Shown: one piece after another, positions 38,787 to 53,571 of the stretch
Layout of the letters: every line of letters begins with the position of its first letter
Numbering within the stretch: the stretch's first letter is position 1
Assembly (NCBI GenBank): GCA_035553315.1
Contig: DATNDE010000019.1
Location: 316-64,315 of the forward strand
Source: Steroidobacteraceae bacterium
GTDB taxonomy: Bacteria > Pseudomonadota > Gammaproteobacteria > Steroidobacterales > Steroidobacteraceae
DNA length: 64,000 bases
Direction of reading: 5' to 3'
Made by a program: the position numbers and the translations under genes
Notes under the pieces: generated by a model
Told to the model about the DNA's origin: nothing
The model's database searches: none
What the model saw: only the letters and a program-made list of their open reading frames with translations

Positions 38787-40091
38787 CTAGCGAAGGGTGT
38801 ACAGATAGGCGGTGATATCCCGCGCCTGATCGTCGGACAGCCCGCTGTCGGGCATGGCATTACCGGGCAGAACACTCTGCGGACTGCGCAGCCACTCAAT
38901 CATGTTCTCAGGGGTGTTGCGCAGCAGGCCCGCGATGTAGATCCGTCTCGCCATCTGCGTCAAGGGCGGTCCGACGAGCCCGCTCGCATCATTGATACCG
39001 GGCACCACGTGACAGGCCCCGCAGCCCGCGGCGCGGATGAGATCCGCTCCGCGTTGTGGGTTGCCGATATCCGAGGCGGCCACCGGATCATTCGCCGCGT
39101 TTGCTGCAGCCTGGCTCGAGCCGCAGCCGGACAAGCTCAACAGCAACAGGCCACAGCCACAGATCAGCAACGCCATGGAAGCGGCCCGCCCGGCGATCGG
39201 CTTCGCAGGCGATGTACGGCCGTGCGCTGTGGTGGCGATGGTTGCGGCCATGGTCGCCCGCCGTGTGGCACGCGCGTGCCGTGCGGGGTGACGGCTTTCG
39301 TCGAATTGCAGCCAGCGCACAATGGCACCACCCGCGGCAATCAGATACACGATTCCGCCCGGCAGCCACATCAGCAGCCCCGCCAGCTGCTGATCCTCCA
39401 GCAGTGACCAGCCCCAGCGCGCCGTGCTGCTCGCGTAGTCCGGATACAGCGGGGTTGCCGCCAGTGTGATCACTGCGCCCGGCAGCGAGCTCACCACCGC
39501 CGTTGCGAGCACGAACAGCAGCGTCGCACCGTAACTGAGCCGACGCCGGCCGGACGGCTCGATGACGATGGTCCAAAACATTAGCGCGCTGGCCAGGAAA
39601 GTCACATGCTCGAATGTGTGGACGGTCTCGTCGTGCAACGCCCACTGGTAGGGACCGGGCAGGTGCCAGCCGATGAAGACACCGCAGAACAGTCCCCACA
39701 CCACGATCGGATGCATGAGCCCGTTGACGCCAGCGGTGATTCCCAGCGCGCGCCACGCGCAGCCGAGACGCTTGCGGCCCACGGGGCCAAAGGCCCACAG
39801 GAACGCGACCGCGGGCCGGCCCCATACCAGCAGCGGGGCCGCGACCATCAGCAGCAGCATGTGCTCGAACATGTGCGCCGAGAACAGCTGGTCTGCCAGC
39901 TCATCCAGCGGGGACAACAGCGCCAGCACCAGCGTCAGCTCGCCACCGAGATAGCACAGCAGCTGGCGCGGCCCATACAGCGGTGCAAGAGCGGGCAACT
40001 GCCGCAGTCGGGCAAACCCGATGAGGTACCACAGCGTGCTGACCGCAATCGGCACCAACACCGCGGGCTCGGCGCTCCAGTGCAAAGCCAT
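38787..40091 (-). CDS. Caa3-type cytochrome oxidase assembly factor CtaG fused to a C-terminal mono-haem cytochrome c domain
   Basis: Polytopic N-terminal part with FSAHMFEHMLLLMVAAPLLV (Caa3_CtaG signature). This is followed by a basic linker, a lipobox-like LLLLSLSGC, then CGACH...GNAMP. ATG 40091 overlaps the upstream stop (ATGA). Confidence 0.7.
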   Translation of the reverse strand: MALHWSAEPAVLVPIAVSTLWYLIGFARLRQLPALAPLYGPRQLLCYLGGELTLVLALLSPLDELADQLFSAHMFEHMLLLMVAAPLLVWGRPAVAFLWAFGPVGRKRLGCAWRALGITAGVNGLMHPIVVWGLFCGVFIGWHLPGPYQWALHDETVHTFEHVTFLASALMFWTIVIEPSGRRRLSYGATLLFVLATAVVSSLPGAVITLAATPLYPDYASSTARWGWSLLEDQQLAGLLMWLPGGIVYLIAAGGAIVRWLQFDESRHPARHARATRRATMAATIATTAHGRTSPAKPIAGRAASMALLICGCGLLLLSLSGCGSSQAAANAANDPVAASDIGNPQRGADLIRAAGCGACHVVPGINDASGLVGPPLTQMARRIYIAGLLRNTPENMIEWLRSPQSVLPGNAMPDSGLSDDQARDITAYLYTLR

Positions 40092-40540
40092 CAGTACACG
40101 CACAGGCGCACCAGCCCCATGGCGATAGTCTCGGTAGAGCAGATCAGAAAGAACATCGCACCGAAGGCCATGCCGATGATGCCCAGGAAGCGAGTGCGGC
40201 CTTCGCCCTTCTCCATGAGCTGATGGGCATGCCCTTCCTCGGGGCCGGTCAAGCGCCACATCCGATATGAGAGCAACGACGCGCTGATGCTCAGAACGAT
40301 TCCCGCCAGATGGATCGCGAGCACCCCGGCCCAGACCCAGCCGAAGCCCGCCATCGGCGAAGCCAGCGGCTCCATGCCGGGATAGCAGGCATGCCCCACC
40401 AGGGAATAATCGGTCATCAGGTCCAGCCCGGCGGCGATCGGCGCGCCGAACACACTCGTCAACCAAAGCGCGGTGCTGATCCGATGGCGGTACGGCGCCG
40501 GATGATGTGCCAGGCTATAGGCAACGAATTCCTCCGCCAT
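40091..40540 (-). CDS. Unknown integral membrane protein of the oxidase operon
   Basis: 149 aa with about 4 predicted TM segments and a His-rich N-terminus (SLAHHPAPYRH). Both ends are ATGA-coupled to neighbouring genes. Confidence 0.55.
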   Translation of the reverse strand: MAEEFVAYSLAHHPAPYRHRISTALWLTSVFGAPIAAGLDLMTDYSLVGHACYPGMEPLASPMAGFGWVWAGVLAIHLAGIVLSISASLLSYRMWRLTGPEEGHAHQLMEKGEGRTRFLGIIGMAFGAMFFLICSTETIAMGLVRLCVY

Positions 40541-41166
40541 CAGTGCACCTGGTAGGGTTTCCAGCCGAAATAGGGGGTGACATCGAGCGTGAAGAGCACG
40601 ATCAGCCAGACGATCGTGACGAAATACCAATAGATCTTCGCCACCTTCACCGGCGTGTGCCGCACCGGGCCGAAGTAACCGAGCCCCGACCACAGCAGCA
40701 CCACGGCAAACATGATGACGCCCACCACGACGTGCGCGAGGTGAAAGCCGGTGATGAGGTAATAGAAGGAGCTGTAGGGGTCGGTCGCAAAGCCGGTCGG
40801 CTGGTGGTACCAGTCCAGGCCCTGCAGGGCGACGAATCCAAGCGAGAGCAGCAGGCTTACCGCCAAGCCCGACAGCAGCCCGGCGCGATCGCCGCGCGCG
40901 ACCGCGCGGTTGGCCCACCACACGCTCAGGCTACCGGCGAAGGCGACCGCCGTCTCCCAGCCCGGATAGAACCAGCTCGGAGGGCCGTCCGGCGGCCAGG
41001 GCCCGTAGTGCGGCTGGCTAGAGAAGTAGAAATACCCAAAGGCCAGGTAGGCGAAGATCATCGATTCCGAGATGACCAAAAACACCACGCCCCAAGTGCC
41101 TGACGCCATGCGTCCAATGCTGCCCATGGGCAGCGGCGGCTGAACCGGAAAGGCTTCAGAGGACAT
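40540..41166 (-). CDS. Cytochrome c oxidase subunit III
   Basis: YYLITGFHLAHVVVGVIMF and WYFVTIVWLIVLF are COX3 motifs. Start is ATG 41166 (11-nt overlap with subunit I) or ATG 41127. Confidence 0.8.
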   Translation of the reverse strand: MSSEAFPVQPPLPMGSIGRMASGTWGVVFLVISESMIFAYLAFGYFYFSSQPHYGPWPPDGPPSWFYPGWETAVAFAGSLSVWWANRAVARGDRAGLLSGLAVSLLLSLGFVALQGLDWYHQPTGFATDPYSSFYYLITGFHLAHVVVGVIMFAVVLLWSGLGYFGPVRHTPVKVAKIYWYFVTIVWLIVLFTLDVTPYFGWKPYQVH

Positions 41167-43105
41167 CGGCCGGCACCTCGCGTTGGCCAGCCTCGGCGAG
41201 TGGCCAGAGCCAGACGACCGAGAGGATGACGGTGAGCAGCGCCCCGGCACCGGCGCACCACCACGATCGGCTCACCAATCCCGCAAACAGCACCGACAGC
41301 GCGCAGGTGGTGAGCAGCGGCATGTACGATTCGCTCGGCATCTTCAGAATGACTTCGGGCTCGCCATCCATCGCCGTGACGCCGAAGGTCTCATGATGGT
41401 GATCCAGCACCGCACCTCTCTCGAGCACGCTCTCGCCATCGCCTTCCTTCAGCCGTTTCTCCCACAGCGGATGACGGCTTGCCACGGAAGGAATGACCGG
41501 AAAGTTGTAGGGCGGAGGCGGTGAGGTCGTGGCCCACTCGAGTGAGTGTGCATCCCAGGGATTGCGCCCGGCACGCACGCCGTAGCGCTTGCTGTAGAAG
41601 ACGTTGATGAAGAACAGCAGGATGCCGACCGTCAGCACGAAGGCGCCGACCGTACTGATCAGGTTGGGGATGTGCCAGCCGATGCCCGCCGGGTAGGTAT
41701 AGACCCGCCTCGGCATCCCGGCGAGACCCGTGATGTGCATGGTGAAGAAGGCCACATTGAAGCCGATGAACATCGTCCAGAAGTTCCACTTGCCGAGCTT
41801 CTCGTTGAGCATTCGACCCGTCATCTTGGGGAACCAGTAGTACATACCGGCCATGACCGCGAACAGGTTCCAGCCGATGAGCACGTAGTGAATGTGCGCC
41901 ACGACCCAGTAGGTGTCGGTGAGCTGCCAATCCACCGGCGCAGCGCCGCTCATGAAGCCGGACACACCCCCGATGACGAATACGAACATGTAGCCGGCGA
42001 GGAAATGAAAGGCGGTGGTGAAAACTGGCCGGCCCGTGTAGATGGTGGCCAGCCAGCAGAACAGCTGCACCCCGCTCGGCAACGTGATCAGGATGGAAGT
42101 CGCGGCGAAGAAGGCCATGCCGAGCGAGGGCAGTCCGGTGGCAAACATGTGGTGCAGCCAAACACCGAAGCCGATCATCATGGTGAGAATGGTCGACAGC
42201 ACGACCGCCGTGTAGCCCACCAGCGGCCGCCGGCAGAAGGTCGGCAGCAGGTCCGAGACGATGCCCATCGCCGGCAGCACGATCATGTAGACCCAGGGAT
42301 GTGCAAACATCCAGAACAGGTGTTGCCACAGCAACGGCTGCCCGCCATTGCTCGCGTTGAAGAAATGCGCGCCAAAGTTGCGGTCGAGCCAGAGCATGAT
42401 GCAGGCGACGCTGACCACCGGCACGGCAAACAGCCCCGCGGCATTCGCGCTGAGCGTGCCCCAGATGAGCACCGGAAAGCGATTGACCGACATGCCGGGA
42501 CAGCGCGTGCGCAGCGTCGTGACCAGGAAGTTGACGCCGCCCGCGGTCAGCGACAGCCCGAAGAACACCAGCGAGAGCGTATAGAAGTCGATGTTGGGTC
42601 CCGGATTGAACTGCCGCGAGGCCAGCGGCGTGTAGTTGAACCAGCCGTCGTTCGGGGGCGCCCCCACCAGCCAACTGCTGTACAGGAACAGTCCCGAGGC
42701 GAGGAACAGCCAGTAGGAAAAGGCGTTGAGGCGCGGGAACGCCATGTCGCGCGAGCCGAGCAGCAGCGGCCAGAGATAGTTGCCGAAGCCGGACAGGATC
42801 GGAAAGGCATACCAGAAGATCATGGTATTGCCGTGCATGCTGAAGATCTCGTTGTACTGCTGCGCCGTCAGCAGATGCCCATTGGGACCGGCGAGCTGCA
42901 GCCGCATGAACAGCGCCTCGATCCCGCCGAGCACCAGGAAACCGAAGGCGGTCACCAGGTACATGACCCCGATCTCTTTGTGATCCACCGTGGTGAGCCA
43001 GCGCCGGATGCCGGGCTTGGATTTCCACATCTGCTCGAGCTTGTGCTCGAGCTGCGGGTTCGGTGACTGGATCTCCGGAATGCGTTCGAATGGGGTGGCA
43101 CTCAT
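41156..43105 (-). CDS. Haem-copper oxidase subunit I (atypical)
   Basis: 649 aa with all six metal-ligand His contexts recognisable: FSMHGNTMIFW, FAHPWVY, WLHHMF, AHIHYVL. Confidence 0.9.
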   Translation of the reverse strand: MSATPFERIPEIQSPNPQLEHKLEQMWKSKPGIRRWLTTVDHKEIGVMYLVTAFGFLVLGGIEALFMRLQLAGPNGHLLTAQQYNEIFSMHGNTMIFWYAFPILSGFGNYLWPLLLGSRDMAFPRLNAFSYWLFLASGLFLYSSWLVGAPPNDGWFNYTPLASRQFNPGPNIDFYTLSLVFFGLSLTAGGVNFLVTTLRTRCPGMSVNRFPVLIWGTLSANAAGLFAVPVVSVACIMLWLDRNFGAHFFNASNGGQPLLWQHLFWMFAHPWVYMIVLPAMGIVSDLLPTFCRRPLVGYTAVVLSTILTMMIGFGVWLHHMFATGLPSLGMAFFAATSILITLPSGVQLFCWLATIYTGRPVFTTAFHFLAGYMFVFVIGGVSGFMSGAAPVDWQLTDTYWVVAHIHYVLIGWNLFAVMAGMYYWFPKMTGRMLNEKLGKWNFWTMFIGFNVAFFTMHITGLAGMPRRVYTYPAGIGWHIPNLISTVGAFVLTVGILLFFINVFYSKRYGVRAGRNPWDAHSLEWATTSPPPPYNFPVIPSVASRHPLWEKRLKEGDGESVLERGAVLDHHHETFGVTAMDGEPEVILKMPSESYMPLLTTCALSVLFAGLVSRSWWCAGAGALLTVILSVVWLWPLAEAGQREVPADVL

Positions 43106-43114
43106 GGCGGGTGG

Positions 43115-44101
43115 CTACTCCAGGGTTTCCAGATAGCTCCGGATATCGGTGAGCTGGCTCCCGGAAAGAGCGACCGCCGGCATCAGATTGCCCGGTTTGA
43201 TGTGCTGCGGGTCGGCGATCCATCCGGACAGGTCCCCGGGCGTATTCGGCAGCGTGTCGGCGCCGATCGATGCGCGGCTCATCAGATGGGTGAGATCAGG
43301 ACCCAGTATCCCGTCGGCCGTAGTGCCGCGAACCCGGTGGCAGATGCCACAATGCACCTGGAAATCCTGCTGGCCCTGAGCGGCCAGCGCCGAGTCTGGC
43401 GGCGCCGCTGGCTGCAGCTGCTGTGCCTTCCAGGCGGCAAACTGCGCGGGTTCCTGCGCCACTACGGCAAAGGCCATGTGCGCGTGTTGCAGGCCGCAGT
43501 ACTCACCGCACTGTCCGCGATAGGTTCCGGGCCGGTCGGCCTCCAGCCAGGTGACGTTCTCGTAACCCGGAATCACGTCGGTCTTGCCGGTGAGCTGTGG
43601 CACCCAGAAGGAATGGATGACGTCGTCGCTGTGCAGCTTGAAATACACCCGCACACCGGTGGGTATGTGAATCTCATTGGCCGTGACGAACTGCTGCGCC
43701 GGGGAGCTGCTCTCGTAGCGCACCTCCCACCACCATTGATGAGCAATGATGTCGATCGTCATCGGGGGTGCAGGCTGCTGCGGACGGATGCTCACCGCAT
43801 CGAGCGTAAAAAATGTCCAGATCGCGGTTGCTAGCAGCAGCGCCGCGGAGATACCGGTGCCGATGTAGACCAGGCTGAGGCCCCGGCCGCCGCGCTCGAG
43901 CGGCACAAGGTTGATGGCGTCGGAGCGCAGATGCGCGTCGGTGGCGTCTCGGCGTTCACGTAACCGTCGCAGTATGCCGGCCAGCGTCAACACCGTGATC
44001 GCGGCGACGACGATGAGCGAGAGGATGATCAGTGCCCAGAGCAGATGGACGACGGGATAGCCCTTGGTGCCAAACGCGACGGTGTAGTTCAGCGGTCCCA
44101 T
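43115..44101 (-). CDS. Cytochrome c oxidase subunit II with fused C-terminal cytochrome c (caa3 architecture)
   Basis: Two N-terminal TM helices, a CuA site (HSFWVP...CGEYCGLQHAHM), and a C-terminal CGICH...NLMP haem c domain. Confidence 0.9.
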   Translation of the reverse strand: MGPLNYTVAFGTKGYPVVHLLWALIILSLIVVAAITVLTLAGILRRLRERRDATDAHLRSDAINLVPLERGGRGLSLVYIGTGISAALLLATAIWTFFTLDAVSIRPQQPAPPMTIDIIAHQWWWEVRYESSSPAQQFVTANEIHIPTGVRVYFKLHSDDVIHSFWVPQLTGKTDVIPGYENVTWLEADRPGTYRGQCGEYCGLQHAHMAFAVVAQEPAQFAAWKAQQLQPAAPPDSALAAQGQQDFQVHCGICHRVRGTTADGILGPDLTHLMSRASIGADTLPNTPGDLSGWIADPQHIKPGNLMPAVALSGSQLTDIRSYLETLE

Positions 44102-44104
44102 GCG

Positions 44105-44890
44105 CTATTTGGCCTGCTTTACGGCGGCCTCCGGCTTTTGACCGAAACTGAAGGGCTCCGTGTAGGCCCACGGGTTCGACGTCGTCTCGAATTCCGCCGG
44201 CACCTGCTCGCGCGTCATGGTTTTCAGAGAGATGGTCTGACCCCATTCGCTCTGTGGAGCGCGGCTGATCTGGCGCACGTAGGCCACGAGGTCCCACACG
44301 ACCGAATCCGGCAGCAGACCGCCCCACGCCGGCATGCCCTCCGGGCGGCCCTGCACGATCGTCAGATAGATGTTCGCCGGATCATCGCCATACTTGAAGA
44401 AGCGGTCACTCAGGGACGGCCCCATGCCACCGCCGCCATTGGAGGCGTGGCAGCCGACGCAATTGAAGGCATTGAAATAGCGCATGCCGCGCTCGGGCGC
44501 GGCCGGATCGTTGCCAACGGGGTTCGCGATCGGCGGGCGAGTCGGAATGCCTCCCGGGAAGAGGTTCGGCACCGGGGTTCGCAGCAGCGCCTCCGTGCCT
44601 CCGTACTGCTCGATCGGCAGGCGGCCCACTTCATCGGGGAGGCTGTGTACCGGAGGGCCCGGAATTTCCTCCTGCGCAAGCGCCGCGGGATTCGAAGTGG
44701 CGCCCGGGGCGTAGGGGTTGGCAAGTTGCGGCTTTCTGGGGACCGTGTTTTCCCCGGCCGGAGTTTGCGGCGCAGGGGTCGTCGGCTGAGGTCCGGGCTC
44801 CTGCGCGGCAGAGCTCCCGGCAACCAACAGCGTCACGAGGGCGGCCGCGAGGCCTGCCCGTCGTGTTGGACGATCAATCATTCGCGCCAT
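44105..44890 (-). CDS. Secreted mono-haem c-type cytochrome with a Pro-rich linker
   Basis: Signal peptide, a PQPTTPAPQTP linker, then CVGCH...GMPAW. AGGAGGA lies upstream. Start is ATG 44890 or GTG 44893. Confidence 0.8.
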   Translation of the reverse strand: MARMIDRPTRRAGLAAALVTLLVAGSSAAQEPGPQPTTPAPQTPAGENTVPRKPQLANPYAPGATSNPAALAQEEIPGPPVHSLPDEVGRLPIEQYGGTEALLRTPVPNLFPGGIPTRPPIANPVGNDPAAPERGMRYFNAFNCVGCHASNGGGGMGPSLSDRFFKYGDDPANIYLTIVQGRPEGMPAWGGLLPDSVVWDLVAYVRQISRAPQSEWGQTISLKTMTREQVPAEFETTSNPWAYTEPFSFGQKPEAAVKQAK

Positions 44891-44907
44891 CACTCCTCCT
44901 GCGGCGG

Positions 44908-45876
44908 TTAGGCGCCGGGGCGGCGCCTTCCACCGCCGACGATGCCGACCCCCGAGTGCGCCAGGTTCTCGCCGTTGAAGCTCACCGGATTGATCAGGGG
45001 CACCCCGAAGCGCTCCAGCACGCGCTCGATCTCGGGGCGGTTCTGCTCGATGACGGCGCTGAGTGCGCGTCGCAGCGCATCGTCCCCGTGTCGCACGCCC
45101 ATCGAGATCTGGAACTGCATGCTCTGCAGGCCGAAGTGATCCTTTCGTGTGCTGAAGGCATCACCGTCCGTGATGAGCGCGACGCGCAGCGGCACCGGTG
45201 ACTGCTGCGCCAGACGCCCCACGGCCGGTCCCCACACCGCCGCCACGTCGATCTGGCCGCGCGCCAACGCCTGAACGATCGCCGCTCTGGGGTTCTGTTG
45301 CGAACCTGTGCCGTTGGGCGCCGTGCCCGGCGCGCCGATATCAAAGGGAATGAGATGATCGGCGAGACCCGCTTCCATCAGCACGTGTGCCGGTGGCGTA
45401 AAAAGGCCGCGTCTGCCGATGGCCTCGACGCCGATGCGCAGCTTTTTCAGATGCGGATCCTTCAGCGAATCCATCTGCAGATGGCGATCCGCGCGCGTCA
45501 GCAGCACATAGCTCGACCAATAGTAGGGCACGGTCGTGTCCATGCCTGGTGTGGGCTTCGGCTCGGCGATCACCGCATCGCAGGCGCTCAGCGCGGGCTG
45601 CAGCGCGGCCAGATCGACATCGGGTCGCAGCCAGACGTATTGCAGCTGTCGTCCCAAGCGGCGCGCCACCAGCGCCGCGATCTGGTTCTCGAACCCCTCG
45701 CCACGGCGATCGGAGAACGGCATGTTGTTGCTCTCCGCGCACATCCGCAGCGGCGGCGCTGCCGCAGACCACCCCAGTGTAGGGACCCCCAGCGCAAGCG
45801 CCAGCCCGGCCAATAGCAAACTCCGGACCCGTCCTGATGGTGCATCGGCTGTTGCGAACTCGGACTTTCGCTGCAT
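44908..45876 (-). CDS. MoxJ/XoxJ-like quinoprotein-dehydrogenase-associated periplasmic binding protein
   Basis: Signal peptide, then LRMCAESNNMPFSDRRGEGFENQIA... typical of the MoxJ-type SBP-like family. It lies directly downstream of a PQQ dehydrogenase. Confidence 0.75.
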   Translation of the reverse strand: MQRKSEFATADAPSGRVRSLLLAGLALALGVPTLGWSAAAPPLRMCAESNNMPFSDRRGEGFENQIAALVARRLGRQLQYVWLRPDVDLAALQPALSACDAVIAEPKPTPGMDTTVPYYWSSYVLLTRADRHLQMDSLKDPHLKKLRIGVEAIGRRGLFTPPAHVLMEAGLADHLIPFDIGAPGTAPNGTGSQQNPRAAIVQALARGQIDVAAVWGPAVGRLAQQSPVPLRVALITDGDAFSTRKDHFGLQSMQFQISMGVRHGDDALRRALSAVIEQNRPEIERVLERFGVPLINPVSFNGENLAHSGVGIVGGGRRRPGA

Positions 45877-45930: not shown

Positions 45931-45954
45931 ATCTATCTATCTATCTACCTACGT
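45931..45954. repeat. Tetranucleotide microsatellite (ATCT)4 plus ACCT ACGT
   Basis: atctatctatctatctacctacgt. On the coding (minus) strand this reads TAGG(TAGA)4, and it contains the TAG stop of the PQQ dehydrogenase. Confidence 0.9.
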
Positions 45955-47921
45955 ACCCCTCGTGCCGCATTGCGCACCCCCGCTCCGTGCGCCTGCGCAG
46001 CGCTCTGCAGGGCCAGCGCTTTTTCACGAGCATGTGGCAGCGCACTCGCCGCTGAGCCCGTCGTCGCCCGCGGCAGCGCGAATACCATCAATGTGCTGCC
46101 ACCGGCCGTATAGGCAGGAAGGTCCTGCATCGCTCCCGTGAAGCCGAGTGCGCCGTTGCGCACGCGCGGATCGATTTCTGCATTCGCCACGGCGCCCGGC
46201 CAGCCGCCCACGCCGCATAGAATGGCGACGTACTGCCGGCCGTCACTTCCCTGATAGCTCACCGGTTGACCGATGATTCCCGACGGCGTCTGTATCTGCC
46301 AGAGAATGTGCCCGGTGCGCGCATCCACGGCCTTGAACCAGCGGTCCATCGTGCCGTAGAAGGCCACGTCGCCGCCCGTGACGAGCGCCCCGCTCCACAC
46401 GGGAAAGTTCTCGTGAATTGCCCACACCTTCTTGTGGTGCTCGACATCCCAGGCCATGAATTCGCCGCGATACCCACCGGGGGCGGCATACATGTCGACC
46501 GTCGCGCCAACGTAGGGCGTCCCCGCGATGTACGCCACCTCGGAGGTCTTCCAGTTCATGCACAGATGCTGGTGCGGGACATAGAGCAGATGCGTACGGG
46601 GCGAATACGCCGAGGGCTGCCAGTCCTTGGCTCCGTCCGCGTTTGGACAGATGTCGGTCACCGTCTTGCCGGGCAGCGGCGTCTTGGCGGGGTTCCTGAT
46701 CGGTCGCCCGGTTTTCAGATCGATGCCGAACGTTGCGTTGATGGTGTCGTAGCCTGTCGCGGAGAAGACCTCGCCGGTGCGTGGATCGAGCTGATAGATA
46801 TAGCCGTTGCGGCCTACGTGCACGAGTCTTTCCTCAGGCCGCCCGTTGACCGGCACATCGATCAACAGGCTCTCATTGATCTCGTCGTAATCGAACACGT
46901 CATGCGGTGTGTATTGATACGCCCACGTCGCCTGGCCGGTGTCCGGATCACGCGCGAATTCCGTGGTGGTCCACAAGTTGTCGCCGGGACGCTGGTTGTT
47001 GTTCCAGGGCGATGGGTTGGCGGTGCCGTAATAGATGAGGTTGAGGCTCGGCTCATACTGAATCCAACCCCACATCGTCGCCCCGCCGATCTTCCACATG
47101 CCCGGCGGCCAGGTGCTGACGCCGAGGTCCTTGCCGATCAGATCCTTGTAGTAGGGTTTGAAGTTCGGCCCGATCAACACGTCCTTGTCCGGGCCGGTGC
47201 CGTAGGCACGCCAGGCGATCTTGCCGCTGTTCTCATCCACGGCCGTGACCCAGCCGCGCACGCCCAGCTCCGAGCCGCTGTTTCCCACCAGCACCTTGCC
47301 CTTGACCACCAGCGGCGCCATGGTGACCGTCATGCCGGTATTGAAATCGCCGAGCAGGGTATGCCAGAGCTCCTGGCCCGTCTGCGCATCGATGGCGACC
47401 AGGTAATCATCCAGCGTTGCGAGGAATACCTTGCCGTGATCGTAGGCCAGCCCACGCGTGACCACATCGCAGCAGGCCTCTCCCTCTGCGGCCGGGTTCG
47501 GCTTGGGGGCATAGGACCACTTCAGCGCGCCGGTGGTCGCATCGAGCGCGAACACCTGATTCGGATGCACGCCGAAGTATGGCCCTACCACGTACATCGT
47601 GTTGTTGATGATCAGCGGCGCCGCTTCCTGGCCGCGGTTCGCGCCTACGGAAAAGCTCCACGCAAGAGTGAGCTTGGAAGCGTTGGCGGTATTGACCTGA
47701 TCGAGGGGGCTATAACGGGTGTTGGCGTAATTGCGCGGTGCCATCGGCCACTGTCTAGGATCCTTCGCGAGCGTCTCGAGATCCTCGGAACTGTCGGCCG
47801 TGTCGGCCGGCGGGGCCTTCGCCTGCGCATGCGGACGCTGTGCCGCAAACGCCGGGGCCAACATGCATGCAGAGGCTATCAGGGCCGCCCCCAGGACGGC
47901 TAGGCGCGGCGCTGCGCTCAT
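45945..47921 (-). CDS. PQQ-dependent dehydrogenase, methanol/ethanol family (XoxF/ExaF-like)
   Basis: Signal peptide, vicinal Cys pair (GEACCDVVTRGLAY), propeller W-motifs, and TPHDVFDYDEIN (D-Y-D). ATG 47921 overlaps the upstream stop (ATGA). Confidence 0.9.
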   Translation of the reverse strand: MSAAPRLAVLGAALIASACMLAPAFAAQRPHAQAKAPPADTADSSEDLETLAKDPRQWPMAPRNYANTRYSPLDQVNTANASKLTLAWSFSVGANRGQEAAPLIINNTMYVVGPYFGVHPNQVFALDATTGALKWSYAPKPNPAAEGEACCDVVTRGLAYDHGKVFLATLDDYLVAIDAQTGQELWHTLLGDFNTGMTVTMAPLVVKGKVLVGNSGSELGVRGWVTAVDENSGKIAWRAYGTGPDKDVLIGPNFKPYYKDLIGKDLGVSTWPPGMWKIGGATMWGWIQYEPSLNLIYYGTANPSPWNNNQRPGDNLWTTTEFARDPDTGQATWAYQYTPHDVFDYDEINESLLIDVPVNGRPEERLVHVGRNGYIYQLDPRTGEVFSATGYDTINATFGIDLKTGRPIRNPAKTPLPGKTVTDICPNADGAKDWQPSAYSPRTHLLYVPHQHLCMNWKTSEVAYIAGTPYVGATVDMYAAPGGYRGEFMAWDVEHHKKVWAIHENFPVWSGALVTGGDVAFYGTMDRWFKAVDARTGHILWQIQTPSGIIGQPVSYQGSDGRQYVAILCGVGGWPGAVANAEIDPRVRNGALGFTGAMQDLPAYTAGGSTLMVFALPRATTGSAASALPHAREKALALQSAAQAHGAGVRNAARGVRR

Positions 47922-48754
47922 TGCTGCACCGCCTTGTTCCACTCGGGAACGTAGCCGGAATGGATCTGCTCGGCGATCTCGGTCTCGCGTCCACCGCACT
48001 GTGGATGGCCCCATCCGGACACGCTGACTCTGGAAGGCAGCATGTCGTAGATGATGGCGTCGTCATGACCTGGACTGACGCCGTTTGGAACATGACCCAT
48101 GCTTAGGGCATCTCTCACGCGCCACGCAACGTTATGGTCCGCGCACGACGTGTCGCCGCTGACTCCAAGCGCGCCAACGAGGTTGCCGTCCTGATACAGC
48201 GCCAGCCCGCCACCGAATACCACTACGCCGCCAATATGCTGGCCGAGCATGGGATCCTTGTCCGTGCCGTAGGTGCTCGGCGCTCCTGCGTAGAGCAGCG
48301 AGGAAACCGGCGGGTTGGTCGTGATCACCCCATACATGGATCCTCCGGAGGCGGACGCTGCGTAAAGGTTCGCAGTGGAGATGGCCATCTGTTTGAGGCT
48401 TACGGCGTTGGCCGTAGTGGCCTTCTCCGCGGCGATGGCGCGGCTGGCGAGCCACTGATCCGTCGCGGCTTTGCCACTCATCGTCACCGCGCAGACCGTG
48501 CCGTCGCGATTGACGACGACCGCCCATTCGTTGTTGTCAAAGCCGCCGTTGCTCGGTCCGCCACTCGCCTTGACGCTGCGCTTGAGCGCCTGCGTGAGAT
48601 TCGCGTGTGTTACAGGACAGTTCTGCGCGAGCGCGCTCGGGAGGCTGAACAGACTTGCGCCCAGTCCGGCCAGCAGCAGAGCGGTCACCCTGCATAGTCT
48701 GCAATGGCCTTGAACGCCCGGCGGGATGCGGCGATGTCGAAGCAGCATGGGCAT
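47918..48754 (-). CDS. Secreted GlcG/HbpS (DUF336)-like protein with a C-terminal extension
   Basis: Signal peptide (..PSALAQ), then DUF336-like WAVVVNRDGTVCAV...SRAIAAEKATTA...GGGLALYQDGNLVGALGVSGD. First gene of the operon. Confidence 0.65.
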   Translation of the reverse strand: MPMLLRHRRIPPGVQGHCRLCRVTALLLAGLGASLFSLPSALAQNCPVTHANLTQALKRSVKASGGPSNGGFDNNEWAVVVNRDGTVCAVTMSGKAATDQWLASRAIAAEKATTANAVSLKQMAISTANLYAASASGGSMYGVITTNPPVSSLLYAGAPSTYGTDKDPMLGQHIGGVVVFGGGLALYQDGNLVGALGVSGDTSCADHNVAWRVRDALSMGHVPNGVSPGHDDAIIYDMLPSRVSVSGWGHPQCGGRETEIAEQIHSGYVPEWNKAVQQ

Positions 48755-49371: not shown

Positions 49372-50478
49372 TCAGCCGAAGTTGATCTTCGCCTCGAGAT
49401 TGGTACGCGAGTCCGCGTACATCAGCGCTTCCTCGAGCGTAATGCGTCCCTGCTTGAACAGCTTGTGCAGGCTCGAATCGAAGCTGCGCACGTCCTTGTC
49501 GCCGCTCTGCATGATCGATTCCTTGATGCTCATGACGTCGCCGCGCTTCACGAGCTCGGCGATGTGCGGCGTGTTCATCATGACTTCGATGGCCGCGACG
49601 CGCTTGTTGTCCACGCCCATGACCAGGCGCTGCGCAAGGATCGCGCGCAGATACTGCGACAGGTCCAGCGTGACCTGCTTGAACTGGTCCAGCGGGAACA
49701 TATTGATGATGCGGTCCAGGCTCTCGGCGCAATTGTTGGCATGCAGAGTCGCGAGCACCAGGTGACCCGTGCCGGCCAGATTGATGGCCGCCTGCATGCT
49801 CTCGCGATCGCGGATCTCACCGATCAGAATCACATCGGGTGCCGCACGCACTACCGCACGCAGCGCTGCGGCATAGGTGCGCGTATCCAGTCCGACCTCG
49901 CGCTGATTGATGATCGAGCGCTTGTTGGCGTGCAGGAATTCGATCGGATCCTCGATCGTAACGATATGATCCGAGGCGCTCTCGTTGCGATGATTGATCA
50001 TCGCCGCCAGCGTCGTGGACTTGCCCGAACCGGTGGCACCGACGACCAGGATCAGGCCGCGCTTGAGCATCGCGAGGTCCGCGCAAACCTCCGGCAGGCC
50101 AAGTCCGTCCACGCGCGGCATGTCCGCGCTGATATAGCGCAGCACCATCGCAGGGTAGCCGCGCTGATAAAAAATATTGACGCGGAAGCGCCCGAGCCCC
50201 GACTCGCTGATCGCAAAGTCGATCTCCAGGTCGCGCTGGAACTGCTCGAGCTGCTCGGGATTCATGAGCCCGAAGCAGATCGAGCGCACGGCCGAGGGCG
50301 ACAGCACCTGCTTGTTGATCGGGAAAATCTGCCCTTCGATCTTGATCTTGATCGGCGCGTTCGAGGTGAAGAACAGATCCGATGCCTTGCGGTCCACCAT
50401 CAGCTGGAACAGCGGCTTGGTGTTCAGCGTGGTCTGGGTTTCGCTGACCGGCAAGTCGATTGGGTCGGTGACAGCCAT
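49372..50478 (-). CDS. Second PilU-like type IV pilus retraction ATPase paralogue
   Basis: 368 aa with Walker A GATGSGKSTT, Asp box, Walker B DVILIGEIRD and His box GHLVLATLHAN. It lacks the PilT AIRNLIRE motif. It lies 4 nt downstream of pilU. Confidence 0.85.
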   Translation of the reverse strand: MAVTDPIDLPVSETQTTLNTKPLFQLMVDRKASDLFFTSNAPIKIKIEGQIFPINKQVLSPSAVRSICFGLMNPEQLEQFQRDLEIDFAISESGLGRFRVNIFYQRGYPAMVLRYISADMPRVDGLGLPEVCADLAMLKRGLILVVGATGSGKSTTLAAMINHRNESASDHIVTIEDPIEFLHANKRSIINQREVGLDTRTYAAALRAVVRAAPDVILIGEIRDRESMQAAINLAGTGHLVLATLHANNCAESLDRIINMFPLDQFKQVTLDLSQYLRAILAQRLVMGVDNKRVAAIEVMMNTPHIAELVKRGDVMSIKESIMQSGDKDVRSFDSSLHKLFKQGRITLEEALMYADSRTNLEAKINFG

Positions 50479-50482
50479 GGCG

Positions 50483-51637
50483 TCAGAAACTCTTTCCCTG
50501 TACTTCCTCGACGATGGTCAGATCCCCGTCCGCCTCGATCGGCTTGTTCTCGCGCTTGCTGTCGAGCTTGATGCGCAGACGCAGCTCGTTCTTGGAGTCG
50601 GAGTTGCGCAGCGCATCCTCGTACGAGATATAGCCCTGCTCGTACAGTTCGAATAGCGCCTGATCGAAGGTCTTCATGCCGATGCGGTTGGAGCGCGCCA
50701 TGATCTCCTTGATCTTGGCGACGTCGCCACGGAAGATCAGGTCCTGGATAAGCGGCGAGTTGAGCATGATTTCCATCGCCGCGATGCGCCCATGACCCGA
50801 CTCGCGCGGAATCAGCCGCTGCGAGATCAGTGCGCGCACGTTCAGCGACATGTCCATGAGCAGCTGCTCGCGCCGCTCTTCGGGGAAGAAGTTGATGATG
50901 CGATCGAGCGCCTGGTTGGAGCTGTTCGCGTGCAATGTGGCGAGCACCAGGTGTCCGGTCTCGGCGAACTGAATGCCGTACTCCATCGTCTCGCGGTCGC
51001 GGATCTCGCCGATCAGGATCACGTCCGGCGCCTGGCGCAGCGTATTGCGCAATGCCGTGTGCCACGATTCGGTATCGACGCCCACTTCTCGGTGCGTGAT
51101 GACGCAGCCGCGGTGCTGGTGCACGAATTCCACCGGGTCCTCGATGGTCACGATGTGTCCGCGGGTCTTGTCGTTGCGATAGCCGACCATCGAGGCGAGC
51201 GTCGTGGACTTGCCCGAACCGGTGCCGCCCACGACGATCACGAAGCCGCGCTTGGAGAGCACGACTTCCTTGAGGATCGGCGGCAGATCGAGCTCCTCGA
51301 AGGTCGGAATCTTGGCGTTGATCAGGCGGATGACGCAGCCGACGTGGCTCTGCTGCACGAAGGCGCTGACGCGAAAGCGGCCGATGCCGGGCGGCGCGAT
51401 CGCGAAGTTGCACTCCTTGGTGGCGTCGAACTCGCGCGTCTGCCGGTCGTTCATGATGGCGCGCACCAGCAGCGCCGATTGGTCGGCCGACAGCGCGCGT
51501 TCCATCTGCGGGCGCACTTCGCCATCGACCTTGATTGCCGGCGGGAAGCCCGCCGTGATGAACAGATCGGAGGCCTGCCGCTCCACGACCCGCTTCAGCA
51601 GCTCCTGCATCAGCTTGATGGCTTGATCACGATCCAT
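50483..51637 (-). CDS. pilU: Type IV pilus ATPase PilU
   Basis: 384 aa with GGTGSGKSTT, DVILIGEIRD, GHLVLATLHAN and a PilU-type C-terminal tail. Confidence 0.9.
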   Translation of the reverse strand: MDRDQAIKLMQELLKRVVERQASDLFITAGFPPAIKVDGEVRPQMERALSADQSALLVRAIMNDRQTREFDATKECNFAIAPPGIGRFRVSAFVQQSHVGCVIRLINAKIPTFEELDLPPILKEVVLSKRGFVIVVGGTGSGKSTTLASMVGYRNDKTRGHIVTIEDPVEFVHQHRGCVITHREVGVDTESWHTALRNTLRQAPDVILIGEIRDRETMEYGIQFAETGHLVLATLHANSSNQALDRIINFFPEERREQLLMDMSLNVRALISQRLIPRESGHGRIAAMEIMLNSPLIQDLIFRGDVAKIKEIMARSNRIGMKTFDQALFELYEQGYISYEDALRNSDSKNELRLRIKLDSKRENKPIEADGDLTIVEEVQGKSF

Positions 51638-51698
51638 ACCGCTCCCGATCTAATGCGAGACCGTGCCGCTTCGCGTGCCGTTCGCCGTCAGCACGGGC

Positions 51699-52739
51699 TT
51701 ACAGCGCGTCCTTGTTCTGCGCCTTGTAACGGGCCTCTTCCTTGCTCACGACGCCCTTTTGCAGCAGATCGGCGAGGCACTGATCCAAGGTTTGCATGCC
51801 GGCCGACTGACCGGTCTGGATGCTCGAATACATCTGCGCAATCTTGCCCTCGCGGATAAGGTTACGGATGGCCGGTGTGCCGATCATGATCTCGTGCGCG
51901 GCCACCCGGCCGCCGCCGATGCGCTTGAGCAAGGTCTGGGAGATCACCGCGCGCAGCGACTCCGAGAGCATCGAGCGCACCATGTCCTTTTCTTCGCCGG
52001 GGAATACGTCGACCACGCGGTCGATGGTCTTGGCGGCGGAGCTGGTATGCAGCGTGCCGAACACGAGGTGGCCGGTCTCGGCTGCGGTCAGCGCCAGCCG
52101 GATGGTCTCCAGGTCGCGCAATTCACCGACCAGCACCAGATCGGGATCCTCGCGCAGCGCCGAGCGCAACGCTTCGCTGAAGCCGAGGGTGTCGCGCTTG
52201 ACCTCGCGCTGATTGATCAGGCAGCGCTTGCACTCGTGCACGAACTCGATCGGGTCCTCGATCGTGATGATGTGATCCGGACGATTGTCGTTGCAGTAGT
52301 CGATCATCCCCGCCAGCGTGGTGGATTTGCCCGAGCCTGTCGGGCCGGTCACCAGCACCAGCCCGCGAGGCAGCATGCACAGATCGCGGAAGATCTTCGG
52401 CGAGCCGAGCTCATCGAGGCTCAAAATGTTGGACGGGATGTTACGGAATACCGCGCCGGCGCCGCGATTCTGATTGAACGCGTTGACACGAAAGCGCGCG
52501 AGCTTGGGGATCTCGAAGGAAAAATCCGTCTCGAAGAATTCCTCATAGGCCTTGCGCTGCTTGTCGTTCATGATGTCGTACACCATGCCGTGCACTTCCT
52601 TGTGGGTCAGTGCAGGCATGTTGATACGCTTCATGTCGCCGTCGACGCGGATCATCGGCGGCACACCGGCCGACAGGTGTAGATCGGACGCGTTATTCTT
52701 GACGGAGAACGCGAGCAGTTGCGCGATATCGACGGCCAT
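51699..52739 (-). CDS. pilT: Twitching motility ATPase PilT
   Basis: MAVDIAQLLAFSVKNNASDLHLSAG, GPTGSGKSTT, GHLVFGTLHT and the PilT-specific AIRNLIREGK. Start is ATG 52739. Confidence 0.95.
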   Translation of the reverse strand: MAVDIAQLLAFSVKNNASDLHLSAGVPPMIRVDGDMKRINMPALTHKEVHGMVYDIMNDKQRKAYEEFFETDFSFEIPKLARFRVNAFNQNRGAGAVFRNIPSNILSLDELGSPKIFRDLCMLPRGLVLVTGPTGSGKSTTLAGMIDYCNDNRPDHIITIEDPIEFVHECKRCLINQREVKRDTLGFSEALRSALREDPDLVLVGELRDLETIRLALTAAETGHLVFGTLHTSSAAKTIDRVVDVFPGEEKDMVRSMLSESLRAVISQTLLKRIGGGRVAAHEIMIGTPAIRNLIREGKIAQMYSSIQTGQSAGMQTLDQCLADLLQKGVVSKEEARYKAQNKDAL

Positions 52740-52782
52740 CGGGTCCTCGTGCCGCGCACGGCGCGGCGAAACGGAACGCAGT

Positions 52783-53571
52783 ATGACGGACGGCGTTTTG
52801 ACCAATATGTTAATCGGTCCGCAGATTTCACCTGCCGATACCGCGCTGGCCGCACGGCTGGCGGCGCTGCGGGCCGCGATCGGCAGTGCCGCGAGCCGCG
52901 CCGGCAGGACTGAGGAATCGATCACGCTCATCGCCGTCAGCAAAGGGCATGCCGCCGGGCAGGTACGGCAGGCTTTCTCTCTGGGCATCCGTCACGTCGG
53001 TGAGAGCTACCTGCAGGAGGCTCTGGGCAAGCGCGCCGTACTCGCCGACCTGCCGCTGGTCTGGCACTTCATCGGACGGCTGCAGACGAACAAGACACGG
53101 CCGATCGCCGAGCAGTTCGATTGGGTGCACGGCGTGGATCGCCTGCACATCGCCGAGCGCCTCTCGGCACAGCGTCCCGCAACGCTGCCGGCGCTCAACG
53201 TGTGCGTGCAGGTGAGCGTCGCAGGGGAGGCCGGTAAGGGGGGCGTCGCGCCCGCGTCGCTGGCGCCGCTGGCTGCGGCGATCGGCTGCTTGCCGCGCCT
53301 GAGGCTGCGCGGGCTGATGTGCATCCTGCCGGCGAATCTTGCGCCCGACGCCAATCGCGCCTTGTTCGCAGTGCTGCGTCAGTGCCTGGCGCGCCTCAAC
53401 GCCTCATACAGTGATTCGCCGACCGCCGCACGCCTGGATACGCTCTCGATGGGCATGAGCGAGGATTTCGCCGAGGCGATTGCCGAGGGCGCAACCTGCA
53501 TCCGTATCGGCACTGCGCTGTTCGGCCCGCGGCGCGCTCCCACTCCCCCATCTACGGCGGGGCTTGGATAG
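52783..53571 (+). CDS. yggS: YggS-family pyridoxal-phosphate homeostasis protein
   Basis: LIAVSKGH (PLP Lys), WHFIGRLQTNK and SMGMSEDFAEAI. Divergent from pilT. Confidence 0.85.
   Translation: MTDGVLTNMLIGPQISPADTALAARLAALRAAIGSAASRAGRTEESITLIAVSKGHAAGQVRQAFSLGIRHVGESYLQEALGKRAVLADLPLVWHFIGRLQTNKTRPIAEQFDWVHGVDRLHIAERLSAQRPATLPALNVCVQVSVAGEAGKGGVAPASLAPLAAAIGCLPRLRLRGLMCILPANLAPDANRALFAVLRQCLARLNASYSDSPTAARLDTLSMGMSEDFAEAIAEGATCIRIGTALFGPRRAPTPPSTAGLG

Follow-up and report, generated by a model that had tools for sequence, protein, structure and literature searches.

No residues of the pumping mechanism of mitochondrial-type oxidases have been studied more intensively than Glu286 and Lys362. 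The glutamate is the accepted branch point of pumped and chemical protons, and E286Q/A and K362M/Q mutants of the R. sphaeroides aa3 and E. coli bo3 enzymes are nearly inactive; A2-type oxidases swap this glutamate for a Tyr-Ser pair and still pump. Here we describe coxI, a gene for oxidase subunit I in which both residues are replaced. It lies in a 64,000-nucleotide stretch of DNA (hereafter the window) from a Steroidobacteraceae bacterium (GenBank assembly GCA_035553315.1, contig DATNDE010000019.1, positions 316 to 64,315 of the forward strand), in a row of genes with a XoxF-type pyrroloquinoline quinone (PQQ) dehydrogenase.

Gene rows of this kind have been described under two names. COX operon type a-II, introduced in 2014, has an extended COX1, a five-helix COX3 and, often, MxaF-related PQQ dehydrogenases, and was found in about 40 Alphaproteobacteria and several Betaproteobacteria (PMC4013037); in 2019 it was renamed 'A1 oxidases, subtype a' (PMC6431628). 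The words 'proton', 'channel' and 'glutamate' do not occur in the text of the 2014 paper. Separately, CoxI/II/III, CtaG, CytC and a small hypothetical protein were reported next to xoxF3 in Acidobacteria and Gemmatimonadetes, and also in soil Proteobacteria (Voutsinos et al. 2024, PMC10875860), a report which cites the 2014 mini-review of Keltjens for cox and ctaG genes in xoxF3 operons. It is confined to co-location, with no mention of unusual oxidase residues.

The window cluster has the type a-II organisation, with which it shares a COX1 of about 650 amino acids (aa) carrying a two-helix C-terminal extension, a five-helix COX3, Caa3_CtaG and a PQQ dehydrogenase. It also has the gene content and order of the xoxF3 clusters (PMC10875860), which make its dehydrogenase a candidate XoxF3. 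Both papers on type a-II sort oxidases by the order of their genes and leave proton channels aside, and a similarly organised cluster on a Rhizobium phaseoli plasmid (locus L243, 8007-9920) instead encodes an oxidase with Glu and Gln at the two positions. The cluster is known as a published gene order; the double residue loss across a XoxF-linked clade appears to be undescribed. Within the limited literature collection that was searched, we found no published report of Trp at the Glu286 position or of the combined double loss, and no full-text match to 'HPWVY'; the nearest papers were the work on K-less oxidases of iron oxidisers, taken up below, and general reviews. The clade is mislabelled 'A1' in the operon literature, and the annotation 'ctaD, cytochrome c oxidase subunit I' hides the difference too. 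A preliminary description of the window, made from its letters alone, had suggested an uncharacterised oxidase lineage. This stands insofar as the clade is conserved and no biochemistry was found for it, but the lineage is not an obscure one, its gene order having been named in 2014 and 2019 and the xoxF3-cox association having been reported.

Subunit I and its two substituted positions

The gene and the two codons in question are the following.

41156..43105, minus strand: coxI, oxidase subunit I of 649 aa (PF00115, 3e-150), with 12 core helices and 2 extra C-terminal helices
42293..42295, minus strand: Trp271, codon TGG, aligned with E286, the D-channel glutamate (phmmer, MAFFT, direct translation)
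42065..42067, minus strand: Gln347 codon, aligned with K362, the K-channel lysine (phmmer, MAFFT, direct translation)

Translated directly, coxI reads MFAHPWVYMI around the first position, with the TGG codon at 42295-42293, and TLPSGVQLFCWL around the second, with the Gln codon at 42067-42065. When phmmer was run against the Protein Data Bank (PDB), 'fahpwvy' paired with 'wghpevy' and 'lpsgvqlf' with 'iptgvkif' of the B. subtilis aa3-600 oxidase, and the same motifs paired with 'ghpevy' and 'vptgikff' of M. smegmatis aa3. A MAFFT alignment with CyoB from the E. coli K-12 genome likewise sets W271 against E286 and Q347 against K362. Both substitutions had been proposed from a hand alignment, and a shift in that alignment is ruled out: three independent alignments concur, and there is no Glu or Lys equivalent at either site.

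The CyoB alignment also accounts for every metal ligand. H91 and H406 correspond to the low-spin haem ligands (E. coli H106 and H421), H404 to the high-spin haem ligand (H419) and H269, H318 and H319 to the CuB ligands (H284, H333 and H334), while Y273 corresponds to the cross-link tyrosine Y288. The presence of all haem and CuB histidines, which the preliminary description had noted by eye, is thereby borne out, and the six are invariant in an alignment of 53 sequences. The A2 alternative (YSHP) is indeed absent, its Tyr-Ser pair being replaced by F267-A268.

Conservation was followed in the 120 best database homologues (62-88% identity to coxI) and in the 80 closest species-representative genomes, for which residues were counted from tblastn alignments. 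Trp occupies position 271, within HPWVY, in 120/120 homologues and 80/80 genomes, and the genomes are equally uniform at H269 (80/80) and Y273 (80/80). The pair of residues before HP is FG, WG or FA among the 120 homologues, with one YA. Position 347 is far more variable, with Ala in 62 of the 80 genomes, Gly in 12, Gln in 4, and Thr and Ser in one each. Gln347 of the window is accordingly a minority state at what looks, from these counts, to be an unconstrained site. As most of the clade has Ala or Gly at this site, the idea that the Gln is a conserved functional stand-in for the lysine was rejected. The subunit II column that matches E89 of E. coli CyoA, the glutamate at the K-channel entrance, is variable (R, S, G or A).

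The lower D channel is retained: D120 and N127 are found in 80/80 genomes, N109 and S130 in 79/80, and S185 and T187 in nearly all correctly framed clade sequences. By these alignments, the K pathway lacks both its lysine and its entrance glutamate, and the D pathway is short of its terminal glutamate alone. The earlier claim that both canonical proton-pathway residues are lost is right for the glutamate and the lysine; to call the D channel as such lost would go too far. One residue of the mid D channel departs locally: at Leu186 (codon 42548-42550), the equivalent of E. coli T201, the clade mostly has Thr (66 of about 75 correctly framed sequences), and the leucine is a deviation of the window organism and its closest relatives.

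A further set of residues is invariant in the clade and differs from canonical enzymes, comprising T94, Y99 and S105 in helix II, Y142 in helix III, W239, D/E285, T308 and N413. Y99 (79/80) and Y142 (80/80) are clade-specific. Position 285 is acidic in 80/80 genomes (D77, E3), as against Thr in 80/80 members of the sister clade described below, and T308 is present in 80/80, where 45/46 canonical enzymes have Ile. Two serines, S344 and S284, are conserved as well.

With its six histidines and a tyrosine whose cross-link is predicted from sequence, the protein falls among the O2-reducing haem-copper oxidases, and within these it falls in the A family: phmmer aligned it to A-family chains of the PDB at E-values from 1e-146 to 1e-102, and to ba3 at about 1e-15 over the C-terminal half only. 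It has neither the glutamate of xGHPEVY that marks A1 enzymes nor the YSHPxVY of A2 enzymes, and it lacks the lysine of PTGVK and the subunit II entrance glutamate that characterise the K channel of both. The D-channel entrance of A1 and A2 enzymes (D132, N121 and N139 in R. sphaeroides numbering) is present. On its sequence, the enzyme is an A-family, caa3-like oxidase that fits neither the A1 nor the A2 definition; its score of 670.1 against TIGR02891 (CtaD) stops 0.65 bits short of the cut-off of 670.75. The weak similarity in the C-terminal half and the retained D-channel entrance set it apart from the B family, and the retained tyrosine and ligands set it apart from the haem-copper nitric oxide reductases (NORs), in which the tyrosine is lost and ligands are altered.

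Its partner subunits are encoded on either side.

43115..44101, minus strand: coxII, CuA domain with fused C-terminal cytochrome c (PF00116 and PF00034)
40540..41166, minus strand: coxIII, five-helix subunit III (PF00510, 2.7e-21), in 80/80 loci

The fused architecture of subunit II had been recognised beforehand and is confirmed by both domain matches and by the top PDB match, 2yev_B, which is subunit II of T. thermophilus caa3 (3.3e-43). The CuA ligands H163, C198, C202, H206 and M209 and the C-terminal CxxCH are conserved in 78-79/80 loci. For coxIII the likely ATG lies 5 nucleotides (nt) past the coxI stop, and the product matches positions 77-252 of the 258 in the PF00510 profile, the first two helices being missing. 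An AlphaFold2 model of coxI, built on 53 clade sequences, reached a pLDDT of 75.5 and a pTM of 0.81. Foldseek matched this model to A-family structures at TM scores of 0.7-0.8, with 2yev_A (T. thermophilus caa3 subunit I+III) at the top (TM 0.81, 617 columns).

The two extra helices of coxI lie at residues 595-633, within an extension of residues ~579-649 (41156-41370). We infer that they are helices 1-2 of a seven-helix subunit III that has been split after helix 2, because the CoxIII profile match runs from 77 to 252, the 876-aa oxidase of B. multivorans is a continuous 2+5-helix I+III fusion, and the Foldseek match spans 617 columns. Degli Esposti et al. interpret the same C-terminal extension as a fused COX4 (PMC4013037). 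The arrangement is that of a caa3 enzyme, with CuA and cytochrome c on subunit II and subunit I partly fused to helices of subunit III.

In comparison with the A1-type aa3 and caa3 enzymes (R. sphaeroides, P. denitrificans, mitochondria, E. coli bo3, B. subtilis aa3-600), the window oxidase shares the fold, the six histidines, the HPxVY tyrosine, a CuA subunit II and a lower D channel of Asp, two Asn and Ser. Unlike them, it has Trp for E286, Gln, Ala or Gly for K362 across its clade, no conserved K-entrance glutamate in subunit II, Thr or Asn for the Mg-site histidine (R. sphaeroides H411) and a subunit III split into 2 + 5 helices. With the A2-type caa3 enzymes (T. thermophilus 2YEV, Rhodothermus marinus) it has in common a cytochrome c on subunit II, the fusion of subunit I and III helices and the lack of Glu at 286. 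However, A2 enzymes have the YSHP pair and keep the K-channel lysine, whereas the Trp clade has F-A, F-G or W-G and no lysine. The ba3 enzyme of T. thermophilus, from the B family, is also without Glu at 286 (Ile) and without the lysine, and its single K-analogue channel, lined by Ser, Thr and Tyr, is a possible functional model; unlike the window oxidase it has no Asp/Asn entrance to a D channel, and the sequence similarity is distant (~1e-15). Finally, acidophilic iron oxidisers have A-family oxidases in which a non-protonatable residue stands at K362 and the entrance glutamate of subunit II is lost (10.1101/2020.03.01.968255; PMC8239418). These are A2-type and keep a D channel with a Tyr-Ser terminus, whereas the Trp clade has lost that terminus too.

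Relatives and the XoxF gene row

Relatives were collected by a profile-free, exhaustive search of 1.84 billion representative sequences, and two neighbour-joining trees were built. In both, the Trp forms make up a single clade within a larger K362-less group that mostly has Glu or Asp at 286, and the canonical Glu+Lys enzymes fall outside this group. Its other members, in which K362 is Gln, include forms from Actinomycetota (about 50% identity) in which the lower D channel is intact, a clade of subunit I+III fusions from Pseudomonas, Halomonas, Legionella and Azotobacter, and the Rhizobium plasmid form with Glu+Gln. The loss of the lysine is clade-wide, but it predates the Trp clade and reaches beyond it, to the Glu+Gln enzymes of Pseudomonas, Halomonas, Legionella, Rhizobium and Actinomycetota.

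The deepest Trp branch is a Gemmatimonadales sequence (locus L195, 9001-10857) of 49% identity, which has Trp+Gln, the changes N109F and D120E, and an adjacent XoxF; it may mark a transition state. The topology suggests an order of change from Lys to Gln, then from Glu to Trp, and then from Gln to Ala or Gly. This order is put forward as a hypothesis only, because the trees are distance trees without support values.

The sister clade of subunit I+III fusions (80 loci, L082-L161; for example L082, 8001-10529) includes Pseudomonas mendocina and stutzeri, Halomonas/Vreelandella, Legionella, Azotobacter chroococcum and M. buryatense 5G. Its members keep an acidic residue at 286 (E78, D2) and have Gln at K362 in 80/80 cases. 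They have two extra invariant glutamates (window positions 105 and 239) and have lost N109, N127 and S130; the position of E239 is Trp in the Trp clade. There is no PQQ dehydrogenase near the sister-clade loci. From its residues, this looks like another uncharacterised proton-pathway variant.

The strongest functional clue, which the preliminary description had missed, is the XoxF operon context. Besides the three oxidase genes, the row contains the following.

47918..48754, minus strand: HbpS/GlcG-like gene, the first of the row (PF03928, 1.8e-11)
45945..47921, minus strand: xoxF-type PQQ methanol/ethanol-family dehydrogenase (TIGR03075, 624 bits)
44908..45876, minus strand: xoxJ/moxJ-like periplasmic binding protein (TIGR03871, 4.5e-59; TIGR03870 MoxJ, 1.7e-41), in 50/80 loci
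44105..44893, minus strand: xoxG-like monohaem cytochrome c (PF13442, PF00034; weak TIGR03872 MoxG match), in 41/80 loci
40091..40540, minus strand: orf4, a membrane protein of 149 aa without a match in Pfam or NCBIfam, in 56/80 loci
38787..40091, minus strand: Caa3-type CtaG copper-insertion factor with a C-terminal cytochrome c domain (PF09678, 2.7e-58; PF00034)

The genes follow one another on the minus strand, tightly spaced, in the order HbpS/GlcG-like, xoxF, xoxJ, xoxG, coxII-c, coxI, coxIII, orf4 and ctaG-c, and by their coordinates several junctions are overlaps of 1 to 4 nt or gaps of 3-9 nt. The xoxF open reading frame (ORF) extends to 48014, its likely start being the Met that precedes the signal peptide, at 47921. 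The top PDB match of its product is the M. fumariolicum XoxF 4mae (2e-181), in which 'dydgvne' pairs with 'dydeine' of the window and thus with the extra lanthanide-binding Asp. With this DYD motif, the XoxJ-like and XoxG-like proteins and the adjacent cox genes, the row is a candidate XoxF3 system, and the xoxG-like cytochrome c is presumed to accept the electrons of XoxF. XoxF3 is strongly induced by cerium in M. trichosporium OB3b (PMC12482762).

Of the 80 Trp-clade loci, 69 have an XoxF-type gene on the same strand within 8 kb, and several of the 11 exceptions are on truncated contigs. The corresponding figures are 0/80 for the sister clade and 0/52 for further Glu-, Asp- or Leu-type loci (0/132 together). 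A complete xoxF-cox cluster is found on plasmid p1 of the cultured methanotroph Methylocella tundrae T4, where RefSeq labels the oxidase gene simply ctaD; CtaG and cytochrome c are separate genes in Methylocella tundrae and fused in the window.

As for the smaller members of the row, the start of orf4 and the stop of coxIII share 1 nt (TGATG). Its product has the conserved motifs HPxPhR and GeGRTRF plus two cysteines, fits the 'about 110-130 aa hypothetical between CoxIII and CtaG' of PMC10875860, and may act as a fourth subunit or in the handling of copper. The stop of the HbpS/GlcG-like gene overlaps the likely xoxF start by 4 nt, and this gene is found upstream of xoxF in the closest relatives alone (7/80 loci).

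Proton delivery and energy conservation

The reading that we favour, with moderate confidence, is of an O2-reducing, electrogenic enzyme that would serve XoxF as a dedicated electron sink, with non-canonical proton delivery and probably without canonical pumping. Electrons would pass from the PQQ of XoxF to the XoxG cytochrome c and on to the cytochrome c domain of subunit II, a path suggested by domain content and gene order, and then by way of CuA and the low-spin haem to the haem-CuB-Tyr centre and O2. The canonical K pathway would be gone, and substrate protons of cytoplasmic origin would arrive by way of the lower D channel, which is retained, by a remodelled, lysine-free K-type path, or by both. 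D/E285, S284, T308 and S344 are candidates for such a path, together with water in the space left by Ala or Gly347. Canonical pumping has probably been lost, because the accepted valve is Glu286 and a Trp in its place cannot carry protons, and energy would be conserved through charge separation alone. The oxidase would then drain electrons quickly from the oxidation of methanol in the periplasm, with little restraint by the membrane potential. The channel placement of Y99, Y142, S105, T308, D285 and N413 is a set of guesses from helix register and clade conservation. Altered proton handling, as previously suggested, is a natural inference from the residues, and the B-like channel chemistry that was mentioned with it may exist; by sequence, the protein is far from the B family (~1e-15 versus 1e-146).

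Several observations weigh against this reading. In a second scan, 11 of 28 Trp-type loci had no XoxF nearby (Burkholderia, Paraburkholderia, Nitrosospira and others), so the oxidase is not exclusively a XoxF partner, and the notion that it is restricted to XoxF operons was rejected. Such carriers include the chromids of Burkholderia multivorans and cenocepacia, Paraburkholderia (among them P. phytofirmans), Caballeronia, Trinickia, Roseovarius and Nitrosospira multiformis (among them Nl7); examples are L244 (7971-10601), from B. multivorans cystic-fibrosis isolates, L174 (8929-10965) and L214 (8959-10974). At XoxF-less loci the gene after the oxidase encodes a large multi-haem-like cytochrome c and not CtaG-c, and the loci of Burkholderia and Paraburkholderia are flanked by SDR and TPP-enzyme genes. 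A limited literature search found no biochemical characterisation of any member of the Trp clade, and XoxF3 is barely expressed in M. silvestris BL2 (PMC9291206). By analogy with A2 enzymes, a clade-invariant tyrosine (Y99 or Y142) could replace the glutamate with pumping retained. The strict conservation of the lower D channel could, moreover, be read as a sign of a working, pumping D pathway, and B-family enzymes pump through a single lysine-free channel.

The latter points lead to the rival that survives best, though we consider it doubtful, namely a fully coupled pumping enzyme, perhaps at ~0.5 H+/e-, that uses either a B-like lysine-free K-type channel or a D channel ending on a tyrosine (Y99/Y142). 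In the K-type variant, protons would move from D/E285 to S284 and to water in the space left by Ala, Gly or Gln347 and, helped by T308, on to S344 and Y273. The clade-wide acidic residue at 285, Thr in every sister-clade locus, speaks for this, as do the invariant T308 in place of the canonical Ile, the conserved S344 and S284, and the clade-specific Y99 and Y142. There are precedents in the Lys-free K analogue of ba3 and in the Tyr-Ser that stands in for Glu in A2 enzymes. However, no carboxylate or obvious valve residue was identified near 286 from the sequence, the channel positions of the candidates are predicted from helix register, and the tolerance of position 347 for Ala, Gly, Gln, Thr and Ser would be unusual for a key relay, though it is compatible with a water-filled gap.

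We regard as unlikely a non-electrogenic oxidase that takes up its protons from the periplasm, as cNOR does, conserves no energy and burns methanol electrons for detoxification, redox balancing or the supply of formaldehyde or formate. Both cytoplasmic relay residues and the entrance glutamate of subunit II are missing, the cavity by which the D channel normally connects with the active site would be filled by the bulky Trp, and the electron donor and the protons it releases are periplasmic. The conservation of D120, N109, N127 and S130 in 79-80/80 genomes, and of S185 and T187 in nearly all sequences, is nevertheless hard to explain without cytoplasmic protons. Nor was a conserved acidic path identified on the periplasmic side; the position of E239 in the sister clade is Trp here.

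Less probable still is an A-family derivative that reduces nitric oxide or another substrate in place of O2, a change that B- and C-related lineages have undergone repeatedly (eNOR, sNOR, gNOR, cNOR). Loss of proton channels is typical of cNOR and qNOR (PMC11214002), and some Trp-type loci belong to the nitrifier Nitrosospira multiformis. However, NOR families are without the cross-link tyrosine and have altered ligands (Glu/FeB, or Asp for His), and sNOR, eNOR and gNOR are B-related (PMC11214002), whereas the Trp clade has an invariant tyrosine and three invariant CuB histidines, and its conserved partner is an aerobic periplasmic dehydrogenase. Identity with sNOR, eNOR or gNOR was rejected outright, these being B-related and without the tyrosine and the window protein being A-family with the tyrosine invariant.

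For the clade as a whole we venture a wider proposal, which is tentative and itself rather improbable. The Trp clade may represent a natural A-family oxidase with neither the K-channel lysine nor any protonatable relay where the D channel ends, which either pumps by an unforeseen route or valve (this may be a tyrosine of helix II or III, or a lysine-free K-type channel from D285) or is the first non-pumping or non-electrogenic A-family O2 reductase. If the second alternative is true, lanthanide-dependent methanol oxidation in soils yields energy that is lower than, and different from, what is assumed. XoxF3 enzymes are reportedly the most abundant methanol dehydrogenases in soil and weathered-rock metagenomes (PMC10875860), and the H+/e- ratio of the oxidase would set the energy yield of this widespread metabolism, because the clade would be a built-in electron sink for XoxF. 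The clade is thus of interest for both the bioenergetics and the ecology of lanthanide-dependent methanol oxidation. A large, conserved clade that has replaced both residues while keeping the O2-reducing centre and the lower D channel amounts to a natural experiment. It opens the questions of what is essential for the delivery and gating of protons, whether a non-pumping A-family enzyme is feasible and how a lysine-free K-type path works. The putative stepwise loss (Lys first, Glu to Trp next and Gln to Ala last) offers natural intermediates that can be compared and, since cultured carriers exist, Methylocystis sp. JAN1 among them, the hypothesis is directly testable.

The gene in soil DNA and its further surroundings

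That the substitutions are an artefact of alignment, a sequencing error or the mark of a decaying pseudogene has next to nothing in its favour beyond the unusual residues themselves, and it is ruled out by the three agreeing alignments, the Trp in 80/80 genomes and 120/120 homologues, the intact ORF and a coverage of ~20x. This coverage comes from an independent soil-metagenome assembly, in which neither codon is variant and 22 of the 25 listed strain variants within coxI fall on third codon positions; coxI is therefore real and under purifying selection. The GC content at third codon positions (GC3) is 0.86, and the gene junctions are overlapping or short.

The window derives from a soil metagenome; the gene was detected in soil DNA metagenomes only, and none of the RNA sequencing runs that were searched for it contains coxI. 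Among the soil-metagenome contigs aligned to coxI, the depth shows spikes of 5-10x at 41749-41855 and 42712-42818, probably because these very conserved segments recruit contigs of other oxidases in the community.

Beyond the row, three consecutive genes for T2SSE-family (PilT/PilB-like) ATPases lie at 49372-52988 on the minus strand. The other flanks that were surveyed are of a housekeeping nature, with pyrB, gshB, a TonB-domain protein, proC, htpG and an SLT/LysM transglycosylase.

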